The notes beneath the pieces were generated by a model, which was given only the letters and a program-made list of their open reading frames with translations, did not search any database and was not told the origin of the DNA. From Candidatus Aenigmatarchaeota archaeon (GTDB lineage Archaea; Aenigmatarchaeota; Aenigmatarchaeia; Aenigmatarchaeales; Aenigmatarchaeaceae), in contig JBDRJK010000011.1 of assembly GCA_043814985.1 (NCBI GenBank), positions 10,710-74,709 of the forward strand: 64,000 nt of DNA. The letters run 5' to 3'. The stretch's first letter is position 1. Each line of letters starts with the position of its first letter. A program made the translations under genes and the position numbers. This document shows, one piece after another, positions 3,082 to 64,000 of the stretch.

Positions 3082-3123
3082 TTAATGATAATATGAAATG
3101 AATGTATATAAAGATTACGGTGA

Positions 3124-31406: not shown

Positions 31407-31422
31407 TGACACATTCGTAGAA

Positions 31423-35055: not shown

Positions 35056-35226
35056 TAAAAACGCTGCCCTTTCCTTTATTTTTATTTGATCAAAGGTGAG
35101 AATCTTGAACAGAAAAGTTATGTATATGGCAATTACGCTTGCATATGGAATGGGGGCTTTAATTGCGCCGAAAATAATAGTTAAGCTTTTATCCTTTTCG
35201 GCTTAACTATAAGCAGGTAATAAAAA

Positions 35227-35982
35227 ATGAACCAAAAATTGATGTTGACTACATTTGTTGGTATTATGTTACTTTCTAATTTAGTTTTGGCAGTGCCAAT
35301 CGCCCATCAATTTTATGGCAATGTCAGTATTAACGGAAGTCCAGCTCCGGATGGAACAACTGTTGTTGCTAAAATAGACGGAACAGAGGTTGGAAGCACA
35401 ACAACTAAAGGTGGAAAGTATGGTTATGACCCAGTATTCATAATATCACTTTCTTCTATACAATCTGGAAGAACAATTAATTTTTTTGTTAATGGAAATC
35501 AAGCAAATGAAAACTTTCAATCTTGTTATGATTTTGCTTGTAGCACAGAATTAGATTTAACAGCTACAGGTGAAACAACTTCTGGCACTACAACAACTAC
35601 TACAGGCGGCGGAGCTCCTAGCGGTGGCGGTTCCACACCATCAACAGAAACCACAACTGAAACAACCGAAACTACAGAAGAGGGTTGCCAGGAGAGATGG
35701 ACTTGTTCAGACTGGGGAGCATGTGAGAACGGCATCCAGACAAGAGTTTGTGAAGACATAAACAACTGCGGAACAAACAGTGGAGAACCGTTCTCATCTC
35801 AGCCATGTGCAACTGTTGGAGAGGAAGCAGAAGCATCAGTTGGACCATCAGGATTCTTCCTACTAACGCCGACCAACCTGTTGATAGGGTCAGTTGTTTT
35901 AATAATAGTCGCGGCAATCACAATCTTTCTATTAAGAAGAAAATCCGAAAACATCGTACTGCCGCCCAAAGCGCTTCTTTAA
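35227..35982 (+). CDS. secreted Thr-rich protein with TSP1-like Cys motif and C-terminal TM anchor
   Basis: Signal peptide; 'TTTTTTGGG...TETTETTE' linker; 'CQERWTCSDWGACENGIQTRVCEDINNCG'; C-terminal TM + 'RRK'. Confidence 0.55.
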   Translation: MNQKLMLTTFVGIMLLSNLVLAVPIAHQFYGNVSINGSPAPDGTTVVAKIDGTEVGSTTTKGGKYGYDPVFIISLSSIQSGRTINFFVNGNQANENFQSCYDFACSTELDLTATGETTSGTTTTTTGGGAPSGGGSTPSTETTTETTETTEEGCQERWTCSDWGACENGIQTRVCEDINNCGTNSGEPFSSQPCATVGEEAEASVGPSGFFLLTPTNLLIGSVVLIIVAAITIFLLRRKSENIVLPPKALL

Positions 35983-36049
35983 AATTTATTCTGTAGTGCT
36001 TGCGTAATGTCAGATAGGCATAAAACTTTTTCCTACTAATTAAAAGTGA

Positions 36050-36802
36050 ATGTCCAAGAAAAATAAGTTTCTCTTTATAATAGTATTGTCGATAGTTTTG
36101 TCGTCTTCGTTAGCCTATGCTATGATAAATTTCCCAGACTTCAAGATCTTCCCGACAATATACGATGAGATAATGCCGAATGAATTGCTTGAGGAGCTGA
36201 AGATTATTGACAGGCTGTCTTTCGTCAAGCTGGCCCAGCACGGCTACAGCCACGGCACAAATGAAAGCCGCCTTGATGTTTTGAAAGGCTACAAGATTCT
36301 GGAATACGATTACGGCTTGGACATAGAATACTATATCCCGCCTTATGATATTCCCCATGCATTCCCCGTGCCCGAAAAAATTTTCTACATACCGGAAAAG
36401 GCCGAGGGCATATACTATGAAAAGGAGAAGATGGACTACGGCCAGTCTTCAGTTGATGATAAATGGACAATGGCCATCCATATTCAGAACGAGATAAACA
36501 CTACTTGGCTGGACGAGATATCAGAGGGAAAGGAGATTGATTACTTCCGTATTGATGACATCAACACGGACATAGTTGATGTAGATACCCAAAAAAACAG
36601 GATATACACCATGATCAACTTCTGCGGCTATAAGAACTGCACCCTTGTTCTGGGTATCATTCCTGTTGTTCCTAGGATGCAGGAGTCGGACAAAAGCTAC
36701 CTTTTCTTCAACAAGGCAATGATAGCCTTGGGCATAATGATGATACTCCCCATATACCTTTTCTACTTTTTGAGTTACCAGTTCCATTGGTGGTTAAAAT
36801 GA
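36050..36802 (+). CDS. membrane-anchored extracytoplasmic protein, weak polysaccharide-deacetylase-like (DUF2334-like 'HGYSH')
   Basis: N-terminal signal/TM, C-terminal TM; 16-nt overlap with GT2 gene. Confidence 0.3.
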   Translation: MSKKNKFLFIIVLSIVLSSSLAYAMINFPDFKIFPTIYDEIMPNELLEELKIIDRLSFVKLAQHGYSHGTNESRLDVLKGYKILEYDYGLDIEYYIPPYDIPHAFPVPEKIFYIPEKAEGIYYEKEKMDYGQSSVDDKWTMAIHIQNEINTTWLDEISEGKEIDYFRIDDINTDIVDVDTQKNRIYTMINFCGYKNCTLVLGIIPVVPRMQESDKSYLFFNKAMIALGIMMILPIYLFYFLSYQFHWWLK

Positions 36803-37845
36803 ATAATGTATCAAGCATCATAATACCGGTCTATAATGAAGAGAAGATTATCATGAATATGCTCAAAAAGAATGTCAAGGTTTTTGAAAACAGCAATATG
36901 GACATCAAGGAGATAATCGTGGTTGATGACGGTTCCATTGACAACTCAAAGAAGGAGATTAAGAGATTCATAAGGGATTACAAAGGCAATATTGACATCA
37001 GGCTGATTCCCCACACAACAAACATGGGAAAGGCCCAGGCTCTTAACACGGGGATAAGGCACGCCAATGGGGAATACGTTCTCTTGTCTGATTCGGACTC
37101 TTTCATGGATGTTGAGGCGCCTGAAAAGATTATTCTGAAGATGAGAGAGACAGGGGCTTCATGTATTGTAGGACATGTTGTGCCTGCTCAGAACACCCTT
37201 CTGACGCGCCTGCAGAGGATGGAGTATGACTTTGACCAAAAGGTAATAAGAAGGGTGCAGTCCCTGTACACCAACGTGATATCAATTCCAGGACCGCTGT
37301 ATTTCACCAAAAAGAGCATTGTTGAAAAGATAAAATTCGACAAGTACAGCATTGTCGAGGATTTCAAGATCGGGATTGAGATGAACAAGAAGAGGCAAAG
37401 GATAGTCCCGACTGATGCCGTGGTATACTCTTATGCCCCTACCAACTTTTCGCAGCTCAGGAAGCAGAGGCTCAGATGGTTCGGGGGAGTATTGAAGGAG
37501 ACCCTGAGAAACAAGGATGTCTGGAAGACCAACCCGTTCTATTTTTCCAACGTGCTGATGTGCTTCACGTCGTTCTTCTTCACCATATCAACCGTAACTT
37601 TGTTTGGCCTGATGCTTTACTTCGCTACAAACCTGCCCAACCTGCTGGTAAACTTCGTGCTGTTCTTCCTTTTCTTCTGCTTTACAATTTCAGCTGTTTA
37701 TGCCCTGTCTATAAGAAGGTTCGAGTTGGACACTTTCCTGGCATTCCCGCTCTATCTGACCTTCTTGTTCATAGTCAGGACAGAGGTTGTCATAAAAGTT
37801 GTTTTGAACAGGAAGTTCGTTTGGGGGACAAGGGAATACCGTTAA
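36787..37845 (+). CDS. family-2 glycosyltransferase, processive synthase type (QxxRW)
   Basis: 'VVDDGSID', 'LLSDSDSF' DxD, 'QRLRWFGG'; 4 C-terminal TM helices. Confidence 0.8.
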   Translation: MVVKMNNVSSIIIPVYNEEKIIMNMLKKNVKVFENSNMDIKEIIVVDDGSIDNSKKEIKRFIRDYKGNIDIRLIPHTTNMGKAQALNTGIRHANGEYVLLSDSDSFMDVEAPEKIILKMRETGASCIVGHVVPAQNTLLTRLQRMEYDFDQKVIRRVQSLYTNVISIPGPLYFTKKSIVEKIKFDKYSIVEDFKIGIEMNKKRQRIVPTDAVVYSYAPTNFSQLRKQRLRWFGGVLKETLRNKDVWKTNPFYFSNVLMCFTSFFFTISTVTLFGLMLYFATNLPNLLVNFVLFFLFFCFTISAVYALSIRRFELDTFLAFPLYLTFLFIVRTEVVIKVVLNRKFVWGTREYR

Positions 37846-38165
37846 TCAGTAGTGTTTCCCTTTAGGAGAATTTCAATTATCTGCGGCAAAGAATTGTTTA
37901 TTGTATTGACAATATTCTCCAGTATCCTGTTGAACAAATAGCCCAATGCACTGTTCGCCCTTTCTGCCAGAACATTAGTGATGTTAGTACCTTCAAACAA
38001 ATCCAAGATATCAGAGACCCTGGTCTGGTTGAACACGGTTATGTTGGGAAGCCCCCTGATGGTGATGTTGGGGATCCTTATGGTTATGTTGGGAATAGTT
38101 ATACCTTGGGCCATCACAACAGGAGAAAGTAGCAGGAACACCGCAAAAACCAGAAAGGCTTTCAT
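37842..38165 (-). CDS. small secreted protein with 'IPNITIR' repeats and many N-x-T sequons
   Basis: Signal peptide 'MKAFLVFAVFLLLSPVVMAQG'. Confidence 0.45.
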   Translation of the reverse strand: MKAFLVFAVFLLLSPVVMAQGITIPNITIRIPNITIRGLPNITVFNQTRVSDILDLFEGTNITNVLAERANSALGYLFNRILENIVNTINNSLPQIIEILLKGNTTD

Positions 38166-38236
38166 GAAGAATAGATTAAATTTTCAACTTAAATATTTAT
38201 CAAGTTTTAATACTGCTTTATTTCCTACGGGTCAGT

Positions 38237-38253
38237 GATTAAGTATTTAAAAC
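38237..38253 (+). promoter_or_regulatory. BRE/TATA promoter element 'gattaagtatttaaaac' ~25 nt upstream of ATG 38273 (leaderless)
   Basis: Archaeal TATA 'tatttaaa'; identical 16-mer reused at 38726. Confidence 0.4.
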
Positions 38254-38272
38254 TTACTGTTTAATTGCTCTT

Positions 38273-38698
38273 ATGAATAAGATATCCTTGAGAATTATTG
38301 AGCCTGTTGACAAGAACAATGATCTTGGAATAATGGCAAGGCTCATACCCGAAGTAAGGATAATATGCTCGAACCAGATAAGGGCGGGCATTCTTCATTT
38401 AATGGTCAACTCTCCGGAGACAATGCACTCCATGAGCGTTGAGAACATGTGTTTTAAACTGGGGATAAGACAGTCTGTTGCCATCCATCACTTGGAAAGG
38501 ATGATTGAGTGGAGGCTGATCGAGGTCAAGAAGAACCAGAGGTACGGCAACAAGACCAGAAGGAGCATATGGGGTCTGAACCTTAAGCATCCCAACTGGA
38601 TAACAGAATGCTACAAGAGCGTAAGGTCACACTTTTTCTCAGAAAAAGAGCTTGACAAGATAACAAACATAAACAAAAGCCTTAGAATTTACAGCTAA
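38273..38698 (+). CDS. putative wHTH transcriptional regulator
   Basis: 141 aa; 'AGILHLMVNSPETMHSMSVENMCFKLGIRQSVAIHHLERMIEWRLIEV' HTH-like. Confidence 0.35.
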   Translation: MNKISLRIIEPVDKNNDLGIMARLIPEVRIICSNQIRAGILHLMVNSPETMHSMSVENMCFKLGIRQSVAIHHLERMIEWRLIEVKKNQRYGNKTRRSIWGLNLKHPNWITECYKSVRSHFFSEKELDKITNINKSLRIYS

Positions 38699-38725
38699 TG
38701 TCGTATTCTTGTACAAGGAAAATCC

Positions 38726-38741
38726 GATTAAGTATTTAAAC
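38726..38741 (+). promoter_or_regulatory. second copy of promoter box 'gattaagtatttaaac' upstream of a ~200-nt leader/ncRNA candidate
   Basis: Identical 16-mer to 38237; followed by GC-rich palindromic block 38851..38940. Confidence 0.35.
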
Positions 38742-38970
38742 TTTTAATGTTCTGTATCACTCCTGTAATAATCCTGTACAGTTTCTGTGCGTAATTTGTC
38801 TCAGAGGGGATTAAATAATTCTTAATTTTATTCTGTTTATGATTAAATTTCTAGAAAGTCTAGAGATGAGTCTAGCGCCGAGGAGGGGCGCTATATCAAG
38901 CTGAGGTTCACCGCGAGGCTTAGGTTTTCCTAGGGAGACAAAATACCCAAAATATTATGGTGAAATTAAT

Positions 38971-39642
38971 ATGAATAACAAAATAATCGCAGCAATTCTT
39001 GGTCTTTTGATGGTAGCATCACCAGCACTAGCATGGAATGTTAACATAGATGCAACTGTTAATAATGCAGTAGCAGGTATATTTGGTGCAGGTGCAGGTA
39101 GTGATACTGGTTTCAGTTATGCAGTTTCTTCAACTGGTGGAATAAGTGGAAGCGGTAACATTGATTTACACGGTGGAGGCAGCAATAACGGTGGAGGAAT
39201 GGGATTAGAAATAGGCGGATCAGGAGCAGAAGGAAACATATTCGCTACACACGACTTAACAGTAATCGGATGCTGTGCAGGACAATGTCCATGCCCAACA
39301 GGTTATGTATATGATGCATCTTCAGCTGTAGAAATAACAGGTGGAGATAACGTAGAACTAGAATTAAAAGGCGGAGCAGGTGAAGAAGGAGCAGGACAAA
39401 AGCTCAAAGTCGGTGGACATGACAACTCAATAGATGCCGGGACAGTTCAAGTAGAAATGGCTTCAAGCCTAACAGTTGACGGAGAAACATCAAGTCATGT
39501 AATGGGCGCATACGGAGAAAACGTATGGTTCAAAGCATTTGGAAAGCAAAAACTTGATGCAGTAGACTGTGCTGTAAACGGATTCTTTGTATCTGTAATG
39601 GGTTTCAGAGAAGCTGTTTGCGATGGCGATAACTGCGATTAA
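38971..39642 (+). CDS. secreted Gly-rich protein
   Basis: Signal peptide 'AAILGLLMVASPALAW'; Gly-rich; 'CCAGQCPCPTG'. Confidence 0.5.
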   Translation: MNNKIIAAILGLLMVASPALAWNVNIDATVNNAVAGIFGAGAGSDTGFSYAVSSTGGISGSGNIDLHGGGSNNGGGMGLEIGGSGAEGNIFATHDLTVIGCCAGQCPCPTGYVYDASSAVEITGGDNVELELKGGAGEEGAGQKLKVGGHDNSIDAGTVQVEMASSLTVDGETSSHVMGAYGENVWFKAFGKQKLDAVDCAVNGFFVSVMGFREAVCDGDNCD

Positions 39643-39772
39643 TTAAGAACATAATCAAAAAAATCGACTCCCCTTTTTCCTTTTATTTTTTAAGGAATTA
39701 AAAATCGAAAGTTTGACTTGATACCTAATGGGTATTTAAAGTTAACTTTTTATTATTATAAAGTGGTAAAAA

Positions 39773-40804
39773 ATGAAGAAAACATTAACAGGATTCGTGA
39801 TTTTATCAATTCTATTAGTATTATCAGTAAACATCGCTATTGCTGAAGAAGAGAGCGTATCATTCGATGTAACTGAGAATGAGACAAACAGCAGCTATAC
39901 TGTAAACATAGACATACAAATCTCAGGAAACGATACTCATGTAAGAGATGACCTATACGGAACAGCAACTGGTTCAGGACCAAGGGATGTGATTTTGGGA
40001 GGTGCTGAATTTGATCATAATAGCGAAGTTAGAGAGATTTGCTATCAGCCAAGCTTACAAGCATATTTTAACCAAATAGGAGACATACCACCATCAGGTT
40101 TTGCAGCATATCTAAAATCTTTGGGATATGATGATGAATCTCATATAAGTTTTATATGGAGTTTGTGCCAGCAAGAGTACATCAACCAACAGCAAGACGC
40201 ATGGTCAACAGACTCTGGCGTACAACCAACTGATATGGTCCGTTACATTACAGGTTCCATAGACTGGTTGTTGGGAAGAGAAGCAAATCCTTTAGACGGA
40301 TACAAAAAGATAGGAGTTGCCTTGGACAGTTACTTTGCTTCTGATAGGGATGTTTGGCTTCTGGTAAACAGAATAAACATTCTGGAGGTAAGAATAGAAG
40401 CATTGGAAAAGACAATAGAAAGAATCGCTTCTGAGGAATACTGTGAAATGAAGGTTGAAGCTCTAATGAAATATAATTTGAGCTATGTCAAGTGCGGAGA
40501 GAACTCGACCATCTATGCAAGAGTCGATCCAAACGAATTTGGTTTCAACATAATCGGTTACACTAACGAGGATCAATGCGCTGTAGAATGGGGATGTACA
40601 GATTGGAGTGAATGCGAGAACGGAATCCAGACTAGAAGATGTTCTGATGCAAACATGTGCGGAAGATATGAAAATAAACCAGAAGAAACACAGGTATGTG
40701 CAGTGGTTCAAGAAGATATAGAAGAGCCAGATTTAACTTATGTTTCAGTCAAGGAAGTCCTTCCAACAATACAGAGCTTGCTTCTGCCTTTGTTCGTGGT
40801 CTGA
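39773..40804 (+). CDS. secreted protein with TSP1-like Cys motif
   Basis: Signal peptide; 'EWGCTDWSECENGIQTRRCSDANMCG' paralogous to motif in 35227 gene. Confidence 0.5.
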   Translation: MKKTLTGFVILSILLVLSVNIAIAEEESVSFDVTENETNSSYTVNIDIQISGNDTHVRDDLYGTATGSGPRDVILGGAEFDHNSEVREICYQPSLQAYFNQIGDIPPSGFAAYLKSLGYDDESHISFIWSLCQQEYINQQQDAWSTDSGVQPTDMVRYITGSIDWLLGREANPLDGYKKIGVALDSYFASDRDVWLLVNRINILEVRIEALEKTIERIASEEYCEMKVEALMKYNLSYVKCGENSTIYARVDPNEFGFNIIGYTNEDQCAVEWGCTDWSECENGIQTRRCSDANMCGRYENKPEETQVCAVVQEDIEEPDLTYVSVKEVLPTIQSLLLPLFVV

Positions 40805-40837
40805 AAGCGTAACAGACCCTTTTGATTTTATTTTCTA

Positions 40838-40968
40838 CTTTGAATAGAGAGTATGTCCCCGTTCTTCAGCTCATAGTCAGCAGAGACTCTCTTCTTTGTC
40901 CTAGCATCGATTGCTCCAATGAACTTGTCACCAATATCAGTGTGAACCTTGTAGGCAAAGTCAAGGGC
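40838..40968 (-). pseudogene. orphan 3'-terminal fragment (~44 codons, TGS domain end) of an Obg-family GTPase gene; diverged direct repeat of 44122..44252
   Basis: ~88% nt identity to 3' end of 44112..45242 gene; encoded peptide [44 protein letters not shown] differs by 1 aa; upstream in-frame stop. Confidence 0.6.
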
Positions 40969-41011
40969 CTGTAGGTATCAACTTTATATTATTGTTGTCA
41001 GAATTATAATA

Positions 41012-43129
41012 ATGAAGAAAGTTATTTTATTTTCTATAATAGCAATAGTCTTGCTGAGCTCAATAACATTGGCAATGACAGACGTGAGAGCGTCAAATAT
41101 TAAATCTAATAGAGTTATAGCGCGCACAAATTCTCTAGCAGACAGGATGCTATTCAGAATGCAGGGGTGCAAAATAATTCACGAGCTGGAAGATGCGACT
41201 GCAATGAATTGCCCAGAGGCAATTGCTTCGAGATTCGAGCAAGATGAAGTTCTTTATATAATGGATTTACAAGCAGACCAACAGATAGGGGCGGACAAGG
41301 TTTGGGCTTTGGGTTATGACGGTTCTGGGGTAACAGTCGCGGTTTTGGATACAGGAGTTGATTATGACCATCAGGAGCTGTCAGACAGCATAGTTGGAGG
41401 TATAAGCTTTGTCTCATACACATCTAGCTATTCTGATGACCATGGACATGGAACACATGTCTCAGGAATAATAACTGCCAATGGTGTTGTAGCCTCTGCA
41501 GAAGGCGTTGCGCCAGGAGCAAAGGTATGGATGGCAAAAGTTTGCGATTCTGGTGGTTCTTGCTATACGAGCGATATAGCAGCTGCGATTGATTATGTTG
41601 TTGATGGGCCTGATGGTGCACCAAATACAGGAGACGAACCAGCAAAGATAATGAGCATAAGCTTGGGCGGCGGAGGAACTTCTAGGTCAAATTGTGATAA
41701 TGATTACTTGGCTTCAAAAGTTAACTGGGCAGTAAGCAAGGGTGTGACTGTTGTAGCAGCAGCAGGCAATACCGGAAGAGTAGTTAGCAGCCCTGGTTGT
41801 GCAAGCGGGGCAATAGCAGTTGGGGCAGTTGACAAAGGCGATGTAAGACCATCTTGGTCTGGCTCAGGCAGTGCGTTAGATATAGTTGCACCAGGGGTAA
41901 GCATTTATTCTAGTTTGCCGGGCGGCGCTTATGCGTCTTGGAGCGGTACTTCAATGGCAACACCGCATGTTTCAGCAACAGTGGCTTTGATGAGGCAGGT
42001 GAACCCGAGCTTAACAGACAGTCAAATCAAAAGCATACTTTATTCAACAGCCAAAGATTTAGGAAGTGCAGGATGGGATAGATATTATGGCTGGGGAAGA
42101 GTCGACGCCTACAATGCATACTTGGCTGTTAAACCAATAGAACCTGAATGCACAATTGATTCAGAATGTGATGACGGATTATACTGTAATGGAGCTGAGA
42201 CATGTATTTCAGGAGTTTGCCAATCAGGAGCATCTGTTGGCTGTTCCTATTTAGATAATCAATGCAATGTTGGAATTTGTGATGAAGCTTCAGATAGTTG
42301 TGTGGCACAACCAAGACCCGACGGAACTTCTTGTAATGACGGTTTGTTCTGTAATGTAGGAGAAACCTGTCAGGCTGGAGCATGCGGCGGAGGAGAGGCT
42401 TACACCTGTGGTGTTAATGACACTTGTACTATTGCTTCTTGTGATGAATCATCAGATAGCTGTTCAAGTTCACCAGTAGCAGACGGAACAACATGTGACG
42501 ATAATTTGTTTTGCACAGTGTATGACGCTTGTACAAGCGGTATTTGCGGTGGAGAACAAATAAACTGTAATGACGGTGTAGGATGCACTGTTGATTCTTG
42601 CAACGAGGGAACAGGCTCTTGCGATAACACGCCGGATAATTCAATATGTGATGATGAAATATATTGTAATGGTGTGGAAACATGCCATGCAACATCAGAT
42701 TGCCAGGCGGGAATCCCAGTAAATTGTAATGATAATAATTTTTGTACAGCAGATAGTTGCGTTGAAGGTTTAAAAACATGTGAAAACGTCTGGGAGGCAT
42801 GTGGTTCGACGGATGGATGCTGCGGACCCGATTGCAATAGTATAAATGATCCAGACTGTGCAACAGCTGTTAAATGCTGGAGCGGAGATTACCAATATCT
42901 CTACAGGAATTCGAATCAGATGAAAAAATTCTGCAAGTGTGCAATGGGTATTTATGGATACAATAGTTACAGTTATAGTTGGGGAAGGGAAACAGTTTAT
43001 TATTATTTAGACTCGGGAAACAATGAAGAGTGGGATACAAATTCAAGGTCATCATATCTTCCAGTAAACAAAGTAGTTTGTGCAGACGGTGAACCATACT
43101 CGACTGGCGAAGATTACTACTACGGTTAA
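41012..43129 (+). CDS. secreted subtilisin-like serine protease (S8) with C-terminal Cys-rich repeats
   Basis: Signal peptide; Asp 'VAVLDTGVD', His 'HGHGTHVSG', Ser 'GTSMATPHVS'; >=6 repeats 'CxDGLYCNGAETC'. Confidence 0.85.
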   Translation: MKKVILFSIIAIVLLSSITLAMTDVRASNIKSNRVIARTNSLADRMLFRMQGCKIIHELEDATAMNCPEAIASRFEQDEVLYIMDLQADQQIGADKVWALGYDGSGVTVAVLDTGVDYDHQELSDSIVGGISFVSYTSSYSDDHGHGTHVSGIITANGVVASAEGVAPGAKVWMAKVCDSGGSCYTSDIAAAIDYVVDGPDGAPNTGDEPAKIMSISLGGGGTSRSNCDNDYLASKVNWAVSKGVTVVAAAGNTGRVVSSPGCASGAIAVGAVDKGDVRPSWSGSGSALDIVAPGVSIYSSLPGGAYASWSGTSMATPHVSATVALMRQVNPSLTDSQIKSILYSTAKDLGSAGWDRYYGWGRVDAYNAYLAVKPIEPECTIDSECDDGLYCNGAETCISGVCQSGASVGCSYLDNQCNVGICDEASDSCVAQPRPDGTSCNDGLFCNVGETCQAGACGGGEAYTCGVNDTCTIASCDESSDSCSSSPVADGTTCDDNLFCTVYDACTSGICGGEQINCNDGVGCTVDSCNEGTGSCDNTPDNSICDDEIYCNGVETCHATSDCQAGIPVNCNDNNFCTADSCVEGLKTCENVWEACGSTDGCCGPDCNSINDPDCATAVKCWSGDYQYLYRNSNQMKKFCKCAMGIYGYNSYSYSWGRETVYYYLDSGNNEEWDTNSRSSYLPVNKVVCADGEPYSTGEDYYYG

Positions 43130-53341: not shown

Positions 53342-54286
53342 TCATTCTAGAAATTCCACAAAGTCAACTTTCCCATCATTGTTCATATCAAGACCATCGA
53401 CAACCCTGGCATAGTGTTTCTTGTTGTAAGAATTACCTGAACATAATTCGTCAAACTTCAACAAAAAAGCCAATAAAGCAGCCTTTGTTCCTTTGTATCT
53501 CCTTCCACTGACAACCAGTATGCTCTTCTTCTTGTCATAGGGATTCTTTATCTTGACAATTATGCCGTAGCTTTCGTCAGAATAAGACTTCTTTGATATC
53601 TCTGAATAGAAGCTGTCAAAGTAATTGTCCTTGTACTTTACTTTTCCGAACTTTATTGGCAGCTTGGAATTGATCTTGGCTGTTATGGAATTGACAGAAG
53701 GGCCTCCAATGAGAATCAGATTGTTCTTCAAATCCTCTTTGCTTAATTCTGTATCAAATCTGACACAATCACCAGGAACGTAATTCAAGAAAGTCCCGAA
53801 AAACAAGGCCAAGTTGGTTGCATAGACACCATCATGACCTCTTTCCTTTGTGGGGCCATGTGGCTCAGGGCTTCCTATTACAATAGTGGCATTGAACTTG
53901 CCGTTTTGGATGAACGGTTCTAGGAACTTTTCATGCTCCTGCTTCATTTCAAAGAACTTTGATGACGGCTGCAAGGGCTTTAGGACCAAGACAAGAGCAG
54001 GGTCTGTTATTGAATAATACTTGGTTATTGCCCCCTGCCTCCTCTCCTCTCTAATTACTTTGATTAGATTGGACTTTTCCAGATTCCTTATGTGGTAGTA
54101 TATCTTCTGTTCGTGCATTTTCAATTTCTTACCCATTTCCTTGGGATAGTAGGGCTTCTCAGCTAACAAACCTAATATTTTCCATGCAAGAGGAGAAAGC
54201 GCAACTTTCAATTCATCGGGTTTCAGTATCCTTGCAGGCAAACTTGTTGGTTTCCCGTTTTTCTCCTCAACTATCCACGTCATCAT
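53342..54286 (-). CDS. wHTH (ArsR-like) protein with C-terminal EF-hand-like Ca-binding loop
   Basis: 'LAWKILGLLAEKPYYPKEMGKKL...IYYHIRNLEKSNLI'; C-terminal 'DMNNDGKVDFVEFLE'. Confidence 0.4.
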   Translation of the reverse strand: MMTWIVEEKNGKPTSLPARILKPDELKVALSPLAWKILGLLAEKPYYPKEMGKKLKMHEQKIYYHIRNLEKSNLIKVIREERRQGAITKYYSITDPALVLVLKPLQPSSKFFEMKQEHEKFLEPFIQNGKFNATIVIGSPEPHGPTKERGHDGVYATNLALFFGTFLNYVPGDCVRFDTELSKEDLKNNLILIGGPSVNSITAKINSKLPIKFGKVKYKDNYFDSFYSEISKKSYSDESYGIIVKIKNPYDKKKSILVVSGRRYKGTKAALLAFLLKFDELCSGNSYNKKHYARVVDGLDMNNDGKVDFVEFLE

Positions 54287-56905: not shown

Positions 56906-57586
56906 CTACTTTTCAACAAACTTGGCGTCCTTTATTTCATAAACTCCAGAGTTATCTTTCCATACTTTCTCTGCCTTTGTTATTTCCAATTTTTTTGAGA
57001 ATAAAGGACAGTCAAGAACAAAAGTTTCAAACTCCCCTCCCTCGCCAACTATGCTGATGTTGTGTTTCTTTTCCAATTTCAATAAATCCTTTATGCAGGC
57101 ATCGTCTATTTTTCTTCCCAGCCAGCTCTCGTCAAAACCGTCAGCAGCAACAGCAGTTATTATTATTTCAAAACCATTTTTGAGCATTTCCCTCAGGAGC
57201 TTTTCAGGGTTCATTCCCCACAGAGGTGCCAATAGTTTCAACTTAAGCTCCTTGCAAACCTTCTCAACCCTGTCCCTCTGATACTTGCTTGCGATTGCCC
57301 CGCAGACAACACCCTCAGCATCAAGATTTTTTAGCAGTATCTCCAAGTCCCTAACCTCCTGCTCTTTTATTCCCAAAGATTCCTTGGAAACCATCTGAAT
57401 TCCCATAAGCCTTGACTGCATTAGTGTTAATCCAATGTTAGGCGTGTGGTACATGTAGCTGTCAGGATTCTTGGAATGGATGGTTGCCGCATACTTTACT
57501 TCATGATCATCTTGTTTTGCCTTGTAAATGGCGTATATCGAGTCTTTTCCACCGGAAACCAAGGCTATCAATTTCATTTTAATCAA
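56906..57586 (-). CDS. diphthine-ammonia ligase-like PP-loop ATPase (MJ0570 family)
   Basis: 'LVSGGKDS' PP-loop; ~226 aa. Confidence 0.6.
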   Translation of the reverse strand: MIKMKLIALVSGGKDSIYAIYKAKQDDHEVKYAATIHSKNPDSYMYHTPNIGLTLMQSRLMGIQMVSKESLGIKEQEVRDLEILLKNLDAEGVVCGAIASKYQRDRVEKVCKELKLKLLAPLWGMNPEKLLREMLKNGFEIIITAVAADGFDESWLGRKIDDACIKDLLKLEKKHNISIVGEGGEFETFVLDCPLFSKKLEITKAEKVWKDNSGVYEIKDAKFVEK

Positions 57587-57642
57587 CTAAATAACTTATA
57601 AATACTTTATTTATTATTATTTATAATCAACGAGGAATTCTT

Positions 57643-58185
57643 ATGGCGTTTCATATAAAAATCGAAAATGTTGTTGCTTCATCTTCTTTGAATGTTCCCA
57701 TAAAGCTCGAAAAGCTTGTTGCTAGTCTTGATAATATTGAATACGAGCCAGAACAGTTTCCTGGTCTGGTGTTGAGATTAAAACAACCAAAGGCAGCTGC
57801 TTTGATTTTTTCTTCGGGTAAAATTGTTTGCACAGGTGCCAAGTCTCCGAAAGAGGCAAAAATAGCTATATCAAAGATAGTCAGGAAAATGAACAAGATT
57901 GGCTTAAAGATACCCAAGAACCACAAGGTAAGGCTAGAGAACATTGTTGCATCTGCGAAACTGGACAGAGAATTGAACCTGAACAATATTGCTTTTACTT
58001 TGGAAAACACTGAATACGAACCAGAGCAGTTTCCTGGCCTGGTTTATAGAATGGACGACCCGAGGGTCACTTTTCTTCTTTTTGGTAGTGGCAAAATTAT
58101 TTGTACTGGCGGAAGAAGTGTAGCAGATGTGAAGAGAGCAGTTGCAAAGGCAGACAAACGATTAAGAAGATTAAAGAAGAAGTGA
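57643..58185 (+). CDS. tbp: TATA-box-binding protein
   Basis: Two direct repeats 'LENTEYEPEQFPGLVYR...FxSGKIxCTG'. Confidence 0.9.
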   Translation: MAFHIKIENVVASSSLNVPIKLEKLVASLDNIEYEPEQFPGLVLRLKQPKAAALIFSSGKIVCTGAKSPKEAKIAISKIVRKMNKIGLKIPKNHKVRLENIVASAKLDRELNLNNIAFTLENTEYEPEQFPGLVYRMDDPRVTFLLFGSGKIICTGGRSVADVKRAVAKADKRLRRLKKK

Positions 58186-58190
58186 TTTTT

Positions 58191-60194
58191 ATGGACGTGG
58201 AAAAGTTTGAAGAGTTTTTTAGCCAATACTATGAAAAAGATTTGCTAGCGGCAGCTGCAAAAGGAGACAAGGCAATAACTGTTGACTTCGAGCTTCTTGA
58301 CAAGTTTGACCCTGAACTGGCTGACAAGCTGATTAACGAGCCTGAAGAGGTTCTTGGTTATGCGAGAGATGCCATATCGAACATTGATTTGCCTGAGGGA
58401 AGCGTGGAAATAGAACCGAGATTCAATAACATTCCCAAAGAGTTCAACATAAGGATAAGGAATTTAAGATCCAAACACATAGGAAAGTTTGTTTCTCTTG
58501 ACGGTGTTGTTAGAAGGGCTTCTGAGGTAAAGCCAGAAATTTCTGTTGCTATTTTTGAGTGCCCTTTGTGTCAGGAAAGGATTGAAGTAAAACAGGCAGA
58601 AAGGGCAATAAAGCCGCCTACAAGATGCACCAATTTGGAGTGCAGGGTAAAGACCGGTTTTGTTGAGGTCGATAAGAAATTGTTTGATGCCAGGTGGATT
58701 TTTATAGAGGAGCCTTTTGAGATCGTTAGTGGTGAGAGACCAGGAGAAGTTTCTGTTTATCTTAAGAACGATTTGACAAGTCCCAGGATGCAGAGGAAAA
58801 CTGATCCTGGAAACAGGCTCAGAGTCAATGGTGTTCTCAAGGAAATAAGAAGAGTAGCCAAGGGAAGGGGAAAGATACAAATGGATATTTATGTTGATGC
58901 GAATTATGTCGAGCCTACAGAGATGGAGTGGGAGGAAGTCATAATATCTCCTGAGGACGAGGCAAGGATAAAAGGTTTGGCAGCTGACCCTGATGTCTAT
59001 GATAAAATAGTTGCTTCGATTGCTCCATCAATATATGGAATGGATGAGATCAAGAAGGCAGTGATGTTTCAATTGTTCGGAGGAGTTCAACACATACTTC
59101 CTGACAGAACCAAGATAAGAGGAGACATTCATGTTTTGCTTATTGGTGACCCTTCAACAGGAAAGAGTCAGTTGCTAAAATTAATAGCATCAATAATTCC
59201 AAGAGGAAAGTATGTCGGTGGCAGTGGAGCAACTGCTGCTGGTCTGACAGCTACAGTTGTCAAGGACGAGGAATTTCTGGGAGGCTGGGTTCTTGAGGCA
59301 GGTGCAATGGTTCTGGCAAACAAGGGCGTTTTGGCCATTGACGAATTCGACAAGATGTCCAAGGATGACCAGATTGCAATGCATGAGGCACTTGAACAGC
59401 AGACTGTTTCAGTAGCAAAAGCTTCTATTGTTGCCACGCTGCCTGCGCAGGTTTCTGTTCTGGCAGGTTCAAACCCCAAGTTCTTCAGGTTCGATCCGTA
59501 CAAGTCTGTTGCTGAACAGGTGGATATACCTGACACATTGCTGGCCAGGTTTGACTTGAAATTTGCTTTGAAGGATGTTCCGGACAAGGAAAGGGACAAC
59601 AAATTGGCAACCCATATTCTGGAGACAAGGCTTGAGCCAAACAGGGTCAAGCCTCTGATAGAGCCCGAGTTCCTGAGAAAGTATATTGCATACTGTAGGA
59701 AGAACTCCAAGCCCAAGATGACAAGGGAGGCTGCCGAGAGGCTGAAGAATTTCTATCTTGACATGAGGGGCATGTATACTGGAGAGGACACAATAGCAAT
59801 TACTTTAAGACAGAACGAAGGTCTGATGAGACTGTCAGAGGCGGCAGCCAAGATAAGGCTGTCAGAAAAGGTGGAAGCCAAGGATGCTGAGAGAGCGATC
59901 AGCGTGATGAAGTTCTCAATACAGCAACTAGGCTATGATTACGAGACAGGTAAAATTGATATTGATAGAACAGATGGCGTTCCCGCATCGCAGAGAAGCA
60001 AGATACACACTATCTTGGATATAATTGACATGCTTGAGAAGAAGCTCGGCAAGCCTGTTGCAAAGGAGGAGATAATAACAACAGCAGAGGAACAAGGTAT
60101 TAAAGTTTCAGATACAGAAGATTTATTGAGAAGATTGAAAACAGAAGGCTCTATATTCGAGCCAAGAATAAATTATGTTGAGAGGATAAGATAA
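58191..60194 (+). CDS. mcm: MCM replicative helicase
   Basis: Zn finger 'CPLCQ...C.NLEC', Walker A 'GDPSTGKSQLL', Walker B 'DEFDKM', Arg finger 'SRFDL'; start set at MDVEKFEEFF (ORF-track start overlaps tbp). Confidence 0.9.
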   Translation: MDVEKFEEFFSQYYEKDLLAAAAKGDKAITVDFELLDKFDPELADKLINEPEEVLGYARDAISNIDLPEGSVEIEPRFNNIPKEFNIRIRNLRSKHIGKFVSLDGVVRRASEVKPEISVAIFECPLCQERIEVKQAERAIKPPTRCTNLECRVKTGFVEVDKKLFDARWIFIEEPFEIVSGERPGEVSVYLKNDLTSPRMQRKTDPGNRLRVNGVLKEIRRVAKGRGKIQMDIYVDANYVEPTEMEWEEVIISPEDEARIKGLAADPDVYDKIVASIAPSIYGMDEIKKAVMFQLFGGVQHILPDRTKIRGDIHVLLIGDPSTGKSQLLKLIASIIPRGKYVGGSGATAAGLTATVVKDEEFLGGWVLEAGAMVLANKGVLAIDEFDKMSKDDQIAMHEALEQQTVSVAKASIVATLPAQVSVLAGSNPKFFRFDPYKSVAEQVDIPDTLLARFDLKFALKDVPDKERDNKLATHILETRLEPNRVKPLIEPEFLRKYIAYCRKNSKPKMTREAAERLKNFYLDMRGMYTGEDTIAITLRQNEGLMRLSEAAAKIRLSEKVEAKDAERAISVMKFSIQQLGYDYETGKIDIDRTDGVPASQRSKIHTILDIIDMLEKKLGKPVAKEEIITTAEEQGIKVSDTEDLLRRLKTEGSIFEPRINYVERIR

Positions 60195-60195
60195 C

Positions 60196-60942
60196 ATGGA
60201 TATCAAAAGATTAACAGCAAAAAAAGCTTCTGCAAAGGAAATAGTTGACGGCAAGTTTGTGAAGAGGGAAGGCTTCCAGAGCAGTTATGTTCTTACCAAT
60301 TTAGGAAGAAGGCTCTCAAGGGTCAGGGTTGTGGGCGTGATAGTTAACAGGTTCATAAGCGATGACGAGAAATATGCCACAGTTACTCTGGACGATTCCA
60401 CGCAGACAATCAGATGCAAGGTTTTTGTCAACACCAAGATACTTGATGGCTTTGGCCCTGGGGATTTTGTAGATGTTTTCGGAAAGCTCAGGGAGTACAA
60501 CGGGGAGGTTTACATGATGCCCGAGATATTGAGAAAGGCTGATGCTAATCTGGAAACATTAAGGATGTTGGAGATGGAGAAGATTTTCAGGGAGCAAAAG
60601 GAAAAAATAAAGAAAATCCAAGAGCTCCAAAATCAGACTTCTGACTTGAAAGAATTGAGGTCATTGGTCAAAGACTCGATGACCCTGGAAGATTTGGAAG
60701 GAATTCTTGAGGCCCAGGAAATGATTGAGGACATTGTCGAGGAAAAGACTGTTACATCCACTGAAATAAAGGGCAAGATACTTAAGTTAATAGAAAAGCT
60801 AGACGAGGGAAAGGGAGCTGACTACCAGGACATCCTGAAAAAATCAGGATTCTCCGAGAACGAGGTCGACTTTGCAATCCAGGACCTGCTGGAAACAGGC
60901 GTTTGCTACGAGCCAACTCCTGGCAAGATAAGGAAGTTGTGA
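60196..60942 (+). CDS. RPA32/Stn1-like OB-fold protein with C-terminal winged helix
   Basis: OB 'RVRVVGVIVNRF...YATVTLDDSTQTIRCKVF'; C-terminal wH 'ENEVDFAIQDLLETGVCYEP'. Confidence 0.5.
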   Translation: MDIKRLTAKKASAKEIVDGKFVKREGFQSSYVLTNLGRRLSRVRVVGVIVNRFISDDEKYATVTLDDSTQTIRCKVFVNTKILDGFGPGDFVDVFGKLREYNGEVYMMPEILRKADANLETLRMLEMEKIFREQKEKIKKIQELQNQTSDLKELRSLVKDSMTLEDLEGILEAQEMIEDIVEEKTVTSTEIKGKILKLIEKLDEGKGADYQDILKKSGFSENEVDFAIQDLLETGVCYEPTPGKIRKL

Positions 60943-60943
60943 T

Positions 60944-61351
60944 ATGGATTATGAAAAACTATTGAATAAAGCTTATGAGAATCTTCCTAAGGTCGAGGAG
61001 ACAACAGAGAGGTTTGAGGTCCCTGAAGTTGACAGCATGATCCAGGGAAGGCAGACAATAATAAAGAACTTCTCCCAGATATGCGAGGCCCTGAGAAGGG
61101 AGCCCAAGCATGTAATAAAATTCTTGACAAAGGAACTGGCAACGCCAGCAGGCTTTGACGGTGTCAGGGCAACATTCCAGTCAAAGCTTCCGGGAAGGAT
61201 GATACAGACCAAGCTCGGAGTCTATGTCAGGGACTATGTCATATGCAAGGAGTGCGGGAAGCCCGACACAAAACTAGTCAAAGAGGACAGGTTAACTTTC
61301 TTGAGATGTGAGGCATGTGGAGCCAAGGCCTCTCTCAAGTCAATAAAGTGA
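60944..61351 (+). CDS. eif2b: translation initiation factor 2 subunit beta
   Basis: 'CKECGKPDT...CEACGA' C4 ribbon; aIF2-beta core. Confidence 0.85.
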   Translation: MDYEKLLNKAYENLPKVEETTERFEVPEVDSMIQGRQTIIKNFSQICEALRREPKHVIKFLTKELATPAGFDGVRATFQSKLPGRMIQTKLGVYVRDYVICKECGKPDTKLVKEDRLTFLRCEACGAKASLKSIK

Positions 61352-61355
61352 AGCA

Positions 61356-61751
61356 ATGAAAGGCCAATTTTTCGTGATGGCTACTGTGATAATGATACTC
61401 ACTCTTATGGCTCTTATTCGCTACTTCTACGATTTTTCAGATATCAATCTTCCAAGACTCAAGGAAGTGAGCGAGCTTAATTACATACCTTTCGTTAAAG
61501 AGACTTTAATTGATACTATCAACTCTTATAACGGAAACTGCAACAAGCTCCAGGACGATTTAACTTTCACAAAAGACTTTCTGGAAAGCAGGATGATTGG
61601 AAGAGGAATGAATCTTAACATAGACTATCAATTATTCTGCATTCCACCAAATCCTCCAGATGCTGATTTCAATTTCACCATAACCACGTCGAATCTTTAC
61701 ACGGAAACAGTTTTCTTATTTTCAGACGAAATGCCACCGCCACCACCATAG
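61356..61751 (+). CDS. small pilin-like protein (class III signal-peptide-like N-terminus)
   Basis: 'MKGQFFVMATVIMILTLMALI'; ends PPPPP. Confidence 0.4.
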   Translation: MKGQFFVMATVIMILTLMALIRYFYDFSDINLPRLKEVSELNYIPFVKETLIDTINSYNGNCNKLQDDLTFTKDFLESRMIGRGMNLNIDYQLFCIPPNPPDADFNFTITTSNLYTETVFLFSDEMPPPPP

Positions 61752-61786
61752 TTAAGCATATTTTAAACCAGAATAAATATTATATT

Positions 61787-64000
61787 ATGCGAGGCGTATC
61801 CGTTATCATAGCTACTGTACTAGTTCTGATGATATCGGCTTCTCTAGTCACTCTCGGCTATACATTTTTCACAGAAATCAGCGATGAAGCCACAGATGTT
61901 GCTCGAAAGACAACAGAAAAAAGATTTTCTGCTATTGGAGCTGACATGGTAGTTGAGTCTGTGTCAGGCAGAAATATCTATGTTAGAAACACTGGAAGGA
62001 CCAACCTTACTGCGTTTAGCGTTTATGTTAATGAGTTACCTGTATCCTTTTCAATTGATAAAGAGACACTGCAGCCAGGCGAGACAGCAACCATTACATT
62101 GAATGCTGATCCTGTTGGCCTGATAGAGGTTTACTCGGCACAGGGCGGTCCAGCAGACTATTATATTCCAGGTCCAGGAGTATGCGGTGATAGTATTCTT
62201 GACATCTTGGAAGACTGTGATCCTCCAGGATCAGACAGTAGTGAATGCTCTTGCTCAGGCATTGACGGCTGTAATGGAGATGATTATTATGATTATCCGC
62301 CATTCGGGGACTGTACAGCCTTGTGCGAGTGTGACACTGGACCAGGTTCAGGGGAGCCTTGCGAACCAACCATAACTTATGACGACCCCGGTTGTCTCGG
62401 TCCTTGTGATATAGATGGTACAGCCTGCGATACAGGGAGCCAATGCTGTAATGGTATGTGCGTGGAAGGAATCTGCGGGCCCTGTGTTTCTGGTACAAAC
62501 TGTGGAGAAAGATGTAGTGACGGCTCTTATGATTTTGATGACATAATTAACCCACATACTTGTGAAGGTTCCACAAACGATGCCTGTAATGTTCTATTAG
62601 GAGTAGGAGAGGGTGACTGTGATTGTGATGCAAACTGTCAACAGCCTGGTTTAATCTGTGATGAAATACCTGGTACTGATTATTGTGTTGTATCAGGAGG
62701 AGGCGGTTTAATTGGCTTCTGGAATTTTGATGGAAATACCTTGGATAGCTCTGGTAATGGAAACGATGGGACAAATAACGGGGCAAGCTGGGTTAGTGGT
62801 ATATCTGGTCAGGCTCTTGATTTTAATAACTTAGAAGGCGACTATGTTAATGTTGACGATTCTCCTAGCTTAGATGTAGACTATATAACATTATCAACAT
62901 GGATATACGTCAATCAATATTTGAATGATCAAAGAATTGTTTCAAGAGAATACGGAACAACCGAACCTTACAATATATACTCATTAATACTTTCAGGAAC
63001 TGGTGAGAGGAAGCTTCAGTTCAGAATTGCTCGAGACGGCCAAGCGACAAGAGATATTATAACAAGCGATGCTGATATCCCATTGAATACGTGGACTCAT
63101 GTCGCTGCAACATACGACGGGAGCACTGCTGTTGTTTACATAAACGGAGACCCTAATAAAACCATTTTAGGTTTGCCAGGAACTATCATAGATAGCGACA
63201 GACCAGTTCTCATAGGTTCAAGTGAATTCTATACACCGAGATTTTTCGACGGAATTATTGACGAGGTTGAAATTTGGGACAGGGCATTAACTCCAGCAGA
63301 AATACAAGCAGAATACCAGCAATATGCACCTTCTGGTCTAATTGGTTTCTGGGGTTTGGACGGTGATGCTACTGATAGTACTCCAAATAATAATGACGGA
63401 ACAGAAGTTAACATTGATTCTAGTGATTGGAAAACAGGAGCAGATTGTGTATCAGGAGGTTGCTTAGAATTAAATGGAGTGGATGAATACATTAATATAC
63501 CAAGCATAGTTCCGGACCCTTCACAAGGTACATTTGAGGCATGGTTTAAACCGAATAATTTGCATGCAGGTATGATACTTTATGTTGGCCAATCAGGAGG
63601 AAATGGTCTGGGCGGCGAGCAAGAACTCCATATAAACGCTTGGAGTAGTGGAGCAGTGAATGGTTATTATGGAGGTGGTGTATTACTAGAATTAGAGGCT
63701 GGTTCATATAATGTTGGTGGATGGAATCATATTGCATATACCTATAACAACAATGGTGCATGTGAGTTATACTTAAATGGTGCTCCAATTGGTAGTGGAA
63801 CACTCTCTGGGACAGTACAGACGAATTTATGGGAGGTTTCAACAAAGATAGGCAGACCATCTGCAAATGAACGATATTTCAATGGATTATTGGATGAGGT
63901 TAAAGTTTGGAACAGAGTATTAACTCCAGCAGAAGTTCAGCAAGAATATATAGATAATGTACCAAGCATGGGAGGTGAGATAGGCTTCTGGAAGTTTGAT
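61787..64000 (+). CDS. partial (5') giant secreted protein: pilin-like N-terminus, Cys-rich region, >=3 LamG/ConA-like lectin domains; continues beyond window
   Basis: Not in ORF track (no stop in window). 738 codons with no stop; 'MRGVSVIIATVLVLMISASLVTLGYTFF'; repeated 'GLIGFW.FDG......GNGNDGT' and 'W.HVAATYDG....YINGD' LamG_3 signatures. Confidence 0.7.
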   Translation, partial: MRGVSVIIATVLVLMISASLVTLGYTFFTEISDEATDVARKTTEKRFSAIGADMVVESVSGRNIYVRNTGRTNLTAFSVYVNELPVSFSIDKETLQPGETATITLNADPVGLIEVYSAQGGPADYYIPGPGVCGDSILDILEDCDPPGSDSSECSCSGIDGCNGDDYYDYPPFGDCTALCECDTGPGSGEPCEPTITYDDPGCLGPCDIDGTACDTGSQCCNGMCVEGICGPCVSGTNCGERCSDGSYDFDDIINPHTCEGSTNDACNVLLGVGEGDCDCDANCQQPGLICDEIPGTDYCVVSGGGGLIGFWNFDGNTLDSSGNGNDGTNNGASWVSGISGQALDFNNLEGDYVNVDDSPSLDVDYITLSTWIYVNQYLNDQRIVSREYGTTEPYNIYSLILSGTGERKLQFRIARDGQATRDIITSDADIPLNTWTHVAATYDGSTAVVYINGDPNKTILGLPGTIIDSDRPVLIGSSEFYTPRFFDGIIDEVEIWDRALTPAEIQAEYQQYAPSGLIGFWGLDGDATDSTPNNNDGTEVNIDSSDWKTGADCVSGGCLELNGVDEYINIPSIVPDPSQGTFEAWFKPNNLHAGMILYVGQSGGNGLGGEQELHINAWSSGAVNGYYGGGVLLELEAGSYNVGGWNHIAYTYNNNGACELYLNGAPIGSGTLSGTVQTNLWEVSTKIGRPSANERYFNGLLDEVKVWNRVLTPAEVQQEYIDNVPSMGGEIGFWKFD

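Follow-up and report, generated by a model that had tools for sequence, protein, structure and literature searches.

What kind of protein is encoded at the downstream end of a DNA stretch from Candidatus Aenigmatarchaeota, where a long open frame joins a pilin-like start to a series of lectin-like repeats? The stretch, hereafter the window, comprises 64,000 nucleotides (contig JBDRJK010000011.1 of assembly GCA_043814985.1, positions 10,710 to 74,709 of the forward strand), and at its end lie a gene for a small protein of 131 aa and, behind it, the frame in question, which the window cuts. A preliminary description made from the sequence alone had read the two as a pilin-like small protein and a giant LamG-repeat protein with a pilin-like N-terminus, together forming a type IV pilus-like or tethered adhesin pair. 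The analysis reported here leads us to favour, with some reserve, the view that the long frame encodes a modular archaeal type IV pilin, that is, a pilin handle carrying adhesin cargo. The pilin module, the motif of a processing site and an extracellular lectin cargo are all present in its product.

Translation of positions 61787–64000 on the plus strand gives 738 codons with zero stops and the N-terminus MRGVSVIIATVLVLMISASLVTLGY; given the local base composition, a run of 738 codons free of stops has a probability of about 6e-23, and each of the five remaining frames is interrupted by 29–84 stops. The full length was taken from a database protein returned by the profile search and 100% identical to the window part: the first 738 residues of GenBank MFH1473594.1 (P0161 in our set) match the window frame at every position (738/738), and this protein of 1333 aa, from a Candidatus Aenigmatarchaeota metagenome-assembled genome (MAG) and a 90.8-kb contig, bears in GenBank only the name "LamG-like". 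The window therefore holds the 5' 738 of the 1333 codons of the pilin-LamG gene (61787..64000, plus strand), whose uninterrupted frame had been described correctly; its product is long, although large rather than giant. The gene had been noted as invisible among the listed open reading frames (ORFs) of the window; the list leaves out those running off the source, and the gene is missing from it for that reason only. Exactly five ORFs of at least 60 aa (134, 69, 79, 92 and 106 aa) occupy the minus strand in 62094..63866, opposite the gene; since the opposing plus frame carries Laminin_G_3 and is 100% identical to the deposited protein, they are non-coding shadows, as first stated, and all homology of this region sits on the plus-strand frame. 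The GC content of the cargo-coding part (39.5–46%, against 40.3% for the whole window) shows no base-composition anomaly marking the cargo. Upstream lies an AT-rich intergenic spacer (61752..61786, plus strand) with a TATA-like TTTTAAA at 61762–61768, and no Shine-Dalgarno-like purine run was seen before the ATG on reading 61752–61786; the sequence suggests a separate promoter for the gene, with little or no leader.

The beginning of the frame holds more than the class III signal-like segment that had been pointed out, a claim that proved to be an understatement. Judged by sequence profile and structural model, residues 1–128 make up an archaeal type IV pilin module in its entirety, which is more than a class III signal peptide. 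The N-terminus can be written MRG|VSVIIATVLVLMISASLVTLGY, where the bar marks the predicted cut: a leader M-R-G (61787..61795, plus strand), with a prepilin-peptidase site predicted after Gly3 (R-G|V-S) from the family motif and known sites, precedes the mature module (aa 4–128, 61796..62170, plus strand), which according to profile, AlphaFold2 (AF2) and Foldseek consists of a hydrophobic alpha-1 helix and a beta-sandwich head. This is the arrangement of a class III signal, with a charged short leader ending in [KR/D]-[GA] and a cut before about 20 hydrophobic residues. An M[KR][GAS] start is found in 110 of 149 sampled members of the family described below, and in 103 of these 110 it is followed by V or I at +1 and then Ser at +2. 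The R-G|V-S site agrees with those tabulated for archaeal pilins characterised in vivo, for which FlaFind predicts KA|IS in UpsA, RA|LS in AapA/B and RA|VS in Haloferax PilA (PMC4371748), and cleavage by prepilin peptidase after Gly3 would be expected. In a hydropathy scan, aa 4–28 form the only transmembrane-like segment of the whole protein, and no C-terminal anchor was detected.

Homology and predicted fold extend the likeness from the signal to the entire module. The profile used (A1) was made from an alignment of the first ~130 residues of eight homologues and has 12 invariant columns within the first 27 residues, a degree of conservation far above that of a Sec signal and such as filament-core helices typically show. 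Against the PDB it found one convincing structure, the Pyrobaculum calidifontis pilus subunit 8fk7 chain A (E=4.7e-7, profile 2–129 on chain residues 6–140), the helix of the Iho670 adhesion filament being a weak extra match. The AF2 model built on A1 has a helix at 2–50 and a seven-strand beta-sandwich at 54–127, the head reaching a predicted local distance difference test score (pLDDT) of 85–93. The top nine Foldseek matches of this model in the PDB are all archaeal pilins or FlaF/FlaG; they include FlaG (5tuh), FlaF/FlaG (5tug and 6pbk), 8fk7 and, from Sulfolobales, the pili 6nav, 6w8x, 8q30 and 8tib, and nothing else fell below E=0.005. The module has, in sum, the N-terminal alpha-helix and the beta-sandwich head homologous to those of archaeal pilins. 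Membership of the UpsA and UpsB families (NCBIfam NF046073 and NF046074) was considered and rejected, the pilin-LamG protein scoring a sub-threshold 21 bits (cut-off 130) and 22.6 bits (cut-off 70), respectively, as would remote homologues only. Free-standing relatives gave weak NCBIfam matches to UpsA, UpsB, ArlF and BasA; the ArlF match, seen in relative P0162 only, reaches 19.5 bits where 110 are required.

The module is widespread. With A1, HMMER collected 1635 cluster representatives at E<=1e-3, of which 623 also pass E<=1e-10, nearly all of the set with the module starting at residue 1, and none of the ten members scanned has a Pfam family above gathering score on the module. Of the 149 members sampled, 31 are shorter than 150 aa (free-standing and pilin-sized), 62 measure 250–400 aa and 46 are longer; extra C-terminal sequence is present in 118. 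Family members are thus either ~130 aa long and free-standing or fused to varied cargo, and the free-standing ones (31/149) are, by their sequences, candidate major pilins. Further genome matches of the N-terminal module come from Aenigmatarchaeota MAGs. In three of these loci a free-standing pilin gene (132 aa) lies between a DHH (GAN/RecJ-like) gene and the gene for ribosomal protein S3Ae (L007 938–1336; L008 10001–10399; L009 1172–1570), and in another (L012 6182–7108) this position is taken by the module joined to another cargo, of 180 aa (308 aa in all). The DHH-S3Ae site is a candidate major pilin locus in related Aenigmatarchaeota, and the presence of a pilin at this fixed position in the four loci implies that the pilin genes of the lineage are scattered among housekeeping genes, as stand-alone archaeal pilins likewise are according to Makarova et al. 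(PMC4858521). A six-frame hmmsearch of the 64-kb window found no second copy of the module. In a Heimdallarchaeota contig (L014), a short match to the pilin helix (residues 1–31) at 60–152 lies about 2 kb from a gene for a FlaI-like ATPase (1963–3387) that is 43% identical to the Aenigmatarchaeota one.

Behind the module the full-length protein consists of a stalk (131–305), LamG1 (306–515), LamG2 (516–727), LamG3 (728–955), an unassigned Cys-containing domain (956–1125) and LamG4 (1126–1333), the parts inside the window all being on the plus strand. The stalk (62177..62701) is the Cys-rich region already noticed after the N-terminus; its composition is strongly acidic, with 26 Cys and 36 Asp/Glu against 1 Lys/Arg. 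It has no sequence relative in the PDB; similar Cys-rich modules occur in the proteins P0004, P0009, P0005 and P0166, and a different Cys-rich type is seen in P0001 and in C-terminal extensions of some homologues of the small protein. LamG1 (62702..63331) contains the best Laminin_G_3 stretch (351–507) and has its anchors at aa 310 (GFWNFD) and aa 492 (DEVEIWDR). LamG2 (63332..63967; anchors at aa 520 and 703) holds the second stretch and is, as an internal repeat, 34% identical to LamG1. Only the first 11 residues of LamG3 (aa 728–738, 63968..64000, with GFWKFD at aa 733) fall within the window; beyond it, the domain runs to about aa 955 and is followed by the 170-aa Cys-containing segment, without a PDB relative by sequence and with a homologous segment in P0005, and then by LamG4. 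Pfam Laminin_G_3 (PF13385), which the preliminary description had named as a check, scores 198.8 bits on the window part (gathering score 27.6, E=7e-59, two stretches) and 368.8 bits in four stretches on the full-length P0161. The earlier count of at least three LamG domains is a little too high for the window, which contains two complete domains and the 11 residues of a third; the full-length protein has four. PDB relatives of the LamG part are 4qvs (LamG1, E=1.8e-10) and 5hon, and as repeated jelly-roll members of the ConA-like lectin/glucanase superfamily the domains may bind carbohydrate or glycoprotein. With its single N-terminal hydrophobic segment, 26-Cys acidic stalk and four LamG domains, the protein after the pilin module has an extracellular character.

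The border between module and cargo is visible in a comparison with the syntenic relative L001. A blastn search of the window against this locus gave one collinear high-scoring segment pair, 56910–62164, with 86.3% identity, and in windows of 60 nt the identity of 75–90% drops to 32–47% after 62160, except over 120 nt where LamG1 has its conserved beginning. The end of collinear identity, at 62164 in codon 126, has the character of a recombination-type breakpoint. At the protein level, identity between the two genomes is 93–98% for the neighbouring genes, 76% in the pilin module, 68% for the small protein and only 28–40% over stalk and LamG part. Read from these alignments, the cargo is swapped behind a conserved pilin handle, with a recombination-type boundary at the pilin/cargo junction; because similarity ends at this junction between genomes whose neighbouring proteins are 93–98% identical, a strain-specific binding specificity is suggested.

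The modular pilin reading can be put as a series of proposed steps. An A24 prepilin peptidase would remove the leader after Gly3; the hydrophobic alpha-1 helix would then dock the pilin-LamG protein into a type IV pilus-like filament, for which the free-standing pilins of ~130 aa in this family would serve as building blocks. As the cargo is bulky, the protein would probably be a tip subunit or a sparse minor one, with the disulfide-rich stalk keeping the LamG array off the filament and so allowing it to bind glycans or glycoproteins, whether these belong to a host cell, to a neighbour or to a surface. For a DPANN archaeon, tiny and probably host-dependent, the obvious use would be host attachment, and the cargo would be exchangeable between strains. 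Several points weigh on the other side. The best Foldseek E-values of the module belong to FlaG/FlaF (2.7e-5 to 2e-4), which in vivo are anchored in the membrane and are no subunits of a filament; when superposed on full pilins the model deviates by a root-mean-square distance of 11–13 A, its helix being oriented differently, and the linker from helix to head (residues 21–50) is modelled by AF2 at a low-confidence pLDDT of 45–55. Scores of the curated pilin hidden Markov models (HMMs) are all far below their cut-offs, and a cargo of 1200 aa may be hard to fit except at a filament tip. Pfam searches of the ~40 ORFs of the window found no T2SSE/FlaI pilus ATPase, FlaJ/TadC platform protein or Peptidase_A24. 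Cleavage, polymerisation and ligand binding are, moreover, predicted steps.

The small protein (61356..61751, plus strand, 131 aa) is deposited as MFH1473593.1, a 'hypothetical protein' whose accession adjoins that of the pilin-LamG protein. It opens with MKGQFFVMATVIMILTLMALI, where the MKG|QFF is class III-like; a single hydrophobic helix stands at the N-terminus, two Cys are conserved, and the tail is poly-Pro. None of its 40 homologues has a Pfam domain; their alignment (A2) displays a near-invariant MKGQFF..ATVIMI.TLM, conserved C62/C95 and NFT/NFS sequons, and in a few of them a C-terminal Cys-rich module and poly-Pro tail resemble a module of the adhesin orthologue P0001. From the hydrophobic N-terminus, the conserved Cys and the sequons, the protein is predicted to be extracytoplasmic. 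The AF2 model (pLDDT 80.8) comprises a helix at 3–28, three more helices and a three-stranded sheet, and matches no solved pilin (best Foldseek E=0.046, with no significant PDB match); the profile likewise has zero matches in the PDB. The pilin-like character claimed for this protein consequently holds for its first ~26 residues only, that is, for MKG|QFF and the hydrophobic helix. Among features of EppA-type pilins, the KG|Q and the helix are present in it and near-invariant among its homologues, whereas position +5 is Met instead of the Glu common in EppA substrates.

Gene order links the small protein to a partner other than the adhesin. A block of genes for TBP, MCM, an OB-fold protein, aIF2-beta and the small protein is conserved in seven loci, namely the window and L001–L006, L003 and L005 repeating the gene orders of L002 and L004. 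The small gene, for a protein of ~120 aa, directly follows that of aIF2-beta in all seven (L001 8125–8481, L002 10001–10363, L004 10001–10393 and L006 10001–10621), and RFC-large and RFC-small, on the opposite strand, come next after the block. A LamG gene stands between the small gene and RFC in three of the seven: in the window (1333 aa), in L001 (698 aa, with a pilin N-terminus) and in L006 (10833–14468), where it encodes a LamG and PA14 protein of 1211 aa with an ordinary Sec-type signal and no pilin module. The remaining four, L002–L005, have no LamG or pilin gene beside the small gene. It seems that the site between the small gene and RFC is a hotspot for variable LamG surface genes; by this gene order it is aIF2-beta, and not the LamG gene, that the small protein conservedly accompanies. 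The small gene sometimes overlaps the aIF2-beta gene, a surface-type protein being in this way tied to a replication and translation block.

A pilin-like N-terminal helix need not lead into a filament: in FlaF/FlaG and in the class III-signal sugar-binding proteins of Sulfolobus it serves as an anchor. The pilin-LamG protein might similarly be a membrane-tethered surface lectin that never polymerises, its helix held in the cytoplasmic membrane or in a bindosome- or pseudopilus-like stub while stalk and LamG domains cross the S-layer. The preference of the head for FlaG (5tuh) and FlaF/FlaG (5tug, 6pbk) in Foldseek agrees with this, as do the free-standing relative with weak ArlF and BasA matches, a homologue named 'archaellum component FlaF' by JGI and the lack of assembly genes nearby in the window; the extra C-terminal sequence of 118 of the 149 members would also fit a general anchoring or display handle. 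The profile, however, aligns end to end with the filament subunit 8fk7 and fails to reach FlaF/FlaG in the PDB search, the 130-aa free-standing members resemble major pilins, conservation of the [KR]-G|[VI]-S site speaks for processing and an archaellum operon context is absent, so that a purely tethered lectin, the main alternative, appears a possible but rather doubtful solution. It is very improbable that the gene encodes a Sec-secreted, soluble LamG protein, freed as a lectin by a signal peptidase I cut (e.g., after I-S-A-S, residues 16–19). The positive n-region, hydrophobic core and small residues 17–19 would permit it, the LamG protein that L006 encodes at this site carries a simple signal of Sec type, and DPANN LamG proteins are listed as Sec substrates (PMC9563170). 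Against these stand a hydrophobic stretch that extends to about residue 28 and belongs to a 128-residue pilin-homologous module including the beta-sandwich head, and the 12 invariant columns in the first 27, with an invariant-like G3-V4-S5, which exceed the usual conservation of Sec signals.

[quoted passage not shown] In the window and in L001 the two genes adjoin each other on one strand, the MKG|Q of the small protein resembles the KG|Q[VLI] of EppA-processed Epd pilins (PMC4371748), and the helices are alike, the A2 profile weakly matching residues 2–27 of P0001; the Cys-rich module and poly-Pro tail that some small-protein homologues share with this orthologue, and the predicted extracytoplasmic location, point in the same direction. 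These likenesses are set against an association with aIF2-beta in 7/7 loci, the absence of an adjoining LamG or pilin gene from L002–L005, a Sec-type LamG neighbour in L006, the pilin-LamG gene's apparently own AT-rich upstream region, a predicted fold that matches no pilin and the Met at +5, and we regard such a partnership as unlikely; the adhesin pair of the preliminary description is not supported in the form proposed. The small protein also figures in a far-reaching extension of the modular pilin reading, which we put forward as speculation and would not expect to hold as a whole. According to it, the Aenigmatarchaeota pilin family with the three-residue leader (M-[KR]-G|[VI]-S), without a Pfam match above threshold, would be a universal polymerisable handle with hypervariable cargo (LamG arrays and other domains) recombined exactly at the junction, near-identical strains would show different host-binding tips on one and the same filament, and the aIF2-beta-linked MKG|Q protein would be a conserved minor pilin priming or capping the filament.

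Several known systems share parts of this design with the pilin-LamG protein. Archaeal pilins with solved filaments (8fk7, 6nav, 6w8x, 8q30 (Aap) and 8tib), as well as UpsA/UpsB, have the same short basic [KR]-[GA] leader, hydrophobic helix and ~130-aa beta-sandwich head, and with the P. calidifontis subunit (8fk7) of a flagellar-like type IV pilus of archaea (AT4P) the window module aligns along its whole length; identity to the solved archaeal pilins is only 16–22%, however, and known archaeal pilins stop after the head, whereas the window protein goes on for ~1200 residues. Cargo of this kind has been described in S. sanguinis, in which PilC combines a pilin moiety, an Ig domain and a ConA-like lectin module and is proposed to bind glycans at the pilus tip, and PilB joins a pilin to a vWA domain (PMC9934059). 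The plan is the same in PilC/PilB, with a class III signal and pilin moiety and an adhesive module grafted behind, but the window pilin moiety is of the archaeal beta-sandwich type and without detectable relation to the bacterial one; PilC has one lectin module, whereas the window protein has four LamG domains and a Cys-rich stalk, its gene lies outside a pil locus, and it is known from sequence alone. In the sense of the Pelicic laboratory, a modular type IV pilin has a class III signal, a pilin moiety and an independent domain, and the pilin-LamG protein conforms to this by architecture, not by homology; that it resides in a pilus is a prediction.

In haloarchaea, TafC of the Haloarcula hispanica Tat-fimbriae likewise combines a filament-subunit domain with LamG and is a minor subunit modelled as tip adhesin, exported by Tat and assembled by donor-strand exchange (PMC11821415). 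Its LamG parts are homologous to those of the window protein (NCBIfam TafC, E=1.7e-17, aa 319–512), which differs in lacking a twin-arginine motif (it has a single Arg) and in having a type IV pilus (T4P)-type pilin as N-domain; membership of the TafC family (NCBIfam NF052521) was rejected at 63.6 bits against a cut-off of 410, the match covering the LamG part only. The archaellum stator proteins FlaF/FlaG (ArlF/ArlG) have an N-terminal hydrophobic helix and an archaellin- or pilin-like beta-sandwich, and differ by the absence of lectin cargo and by not being reached by A1 in the PDB; membership was rejected here too, the likeness being structural only, with 19.5 against 110 bits for ArlF (P0162) and no FlaH/I/J genes in the window. 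As regards DPANN archaea, LamG proteins are described as expanded and sometimes linked to T4P loci (PMC5498576), and Makarova et al. (2016, PMC4858521) predict large class III-signal adhesins in archaeal T4P loci, left unclassified as 'adhesin or minor pilin'. The LamG/ConA-like proteins of Mia14/ARMAN-2 and of Undinarchaeales (arCOG07813) share with the window protein the LamG_3 domains, the kind of organism and a presumed role in host or cell–cell contact, and differ in that the passages concerned present them as signal-peptide LamG proteins. Within the sections of the literature covered, no published description was found of a LamG array preceded in frame by an archaeal pilin domain that is complete, nor of a free-standing-plus-fused family of such size without a Pfam model above threshold, nor of a cargo-swap breakpoint.

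Assembly genes are encoded by close relatives of the window genome. The preliminary description had proposed to look for a prepilin peptidase (PibD/FlaK) and a pilus ATPase; neither was found in the window by Pfam, and tblastn of the window with a relative's ATPase and peptidase gave no match. In L002, an A24 peptidase with YD and GGGD motifs is encoded ~5 kb downstream of the syntenic site, and L008 has a FlaI-like ATPase (399 bits, equivalog cut-off 550) 4 kb from the free-standing family pilin; no platform protein was identified in any examined locus. By synteny, the peptidase of the present genome may lie beyond the window end. The other window genes are archaeal housekeeping genes: FttA, proteasome alpha and beta, ProRS, Mre11/Rad50, MetRS, exosome, SBDS, RNase P p30, Nre, GatD/E, TBP, MCM, the OB-fold protein and aIF2-beta. 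Neither tRNA genes (ARAGORN) nor Rfam families at gathering threshold were detected in the window (1–64000).

Some further features of the window may be recorded. A surface-protein island at 30330–43129 encodes two proteins with OmpL47-type beta-barrel domains, one of 358 aa and signal-anchored, the other of 1210 aa with 48 Cys and no signal; their genes lie only 16 nt apart in different frames (31406/31423), and a frameshift or an error of assembly may have split a single gene. The island also encodes two ~250-aa proteins with an N-terminal signal and a C-terminal transmembrane anchor, a GT2 glycosyltransferase, two secreted orphans and a 48-Cys S8 subtilase. At 53342–54286, on the minus strand, a 314-aa protein joins an N-terminal helix-turn-helix (HTH_20/PadR/ArsR-like) to an 'S-layer like family, outer domain' (S_layer_C), an architecture kept in L002 and L006. 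Just upstream of Nre, a 411-aa ORF (25764–26999) has a LAGLIDADG_3 homing-endonuclease domain as its sole Pfam match. The MCM of L006 (5449–8577) contains a LAGLIDADG intein and that of the window is intein-free. As called, the window MCM ORF (58101–60194) starts at a TTG inside the TBP gene; orthologues have 667 aa, and the likely true start is the ATG at 58191 (MDVEKFEEFF...), which gives 667 aa with 92.8% identity to L001.

The finding bears on host recognition and attachment in DPANN archaea. Genome papers on the group report "no pilins annotated" beside many LamG proteins (PMC9563170, PMC5498576), and the present locus joins the two observations, for a protein named "LamG-like" in GenBank begins with a pilin module. 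Most likely the pilin-LamG protein is a surface or pilus-borne adhesin, of a design known in principle and encoded by a gene already deposited; current ideas stand, modular pilins and archaeal class III-signal adhesins being established concepts, and the protein offers a specific candidate for a filament-borne host adhesin. The location of pilin genes among housekeeping genes implies that operon-based searches will miss them, and the sharp breakpoint suggests strain-level variation in binding specificity. If true, the far-reaching extension set out above, with hypervariable cargo on a universal pilin handle, would represent an archaeal analogue of bacterial tip-adhesin switching and modular pilins, and would provide a molecular handle on the host specificity of DPANN archaea.

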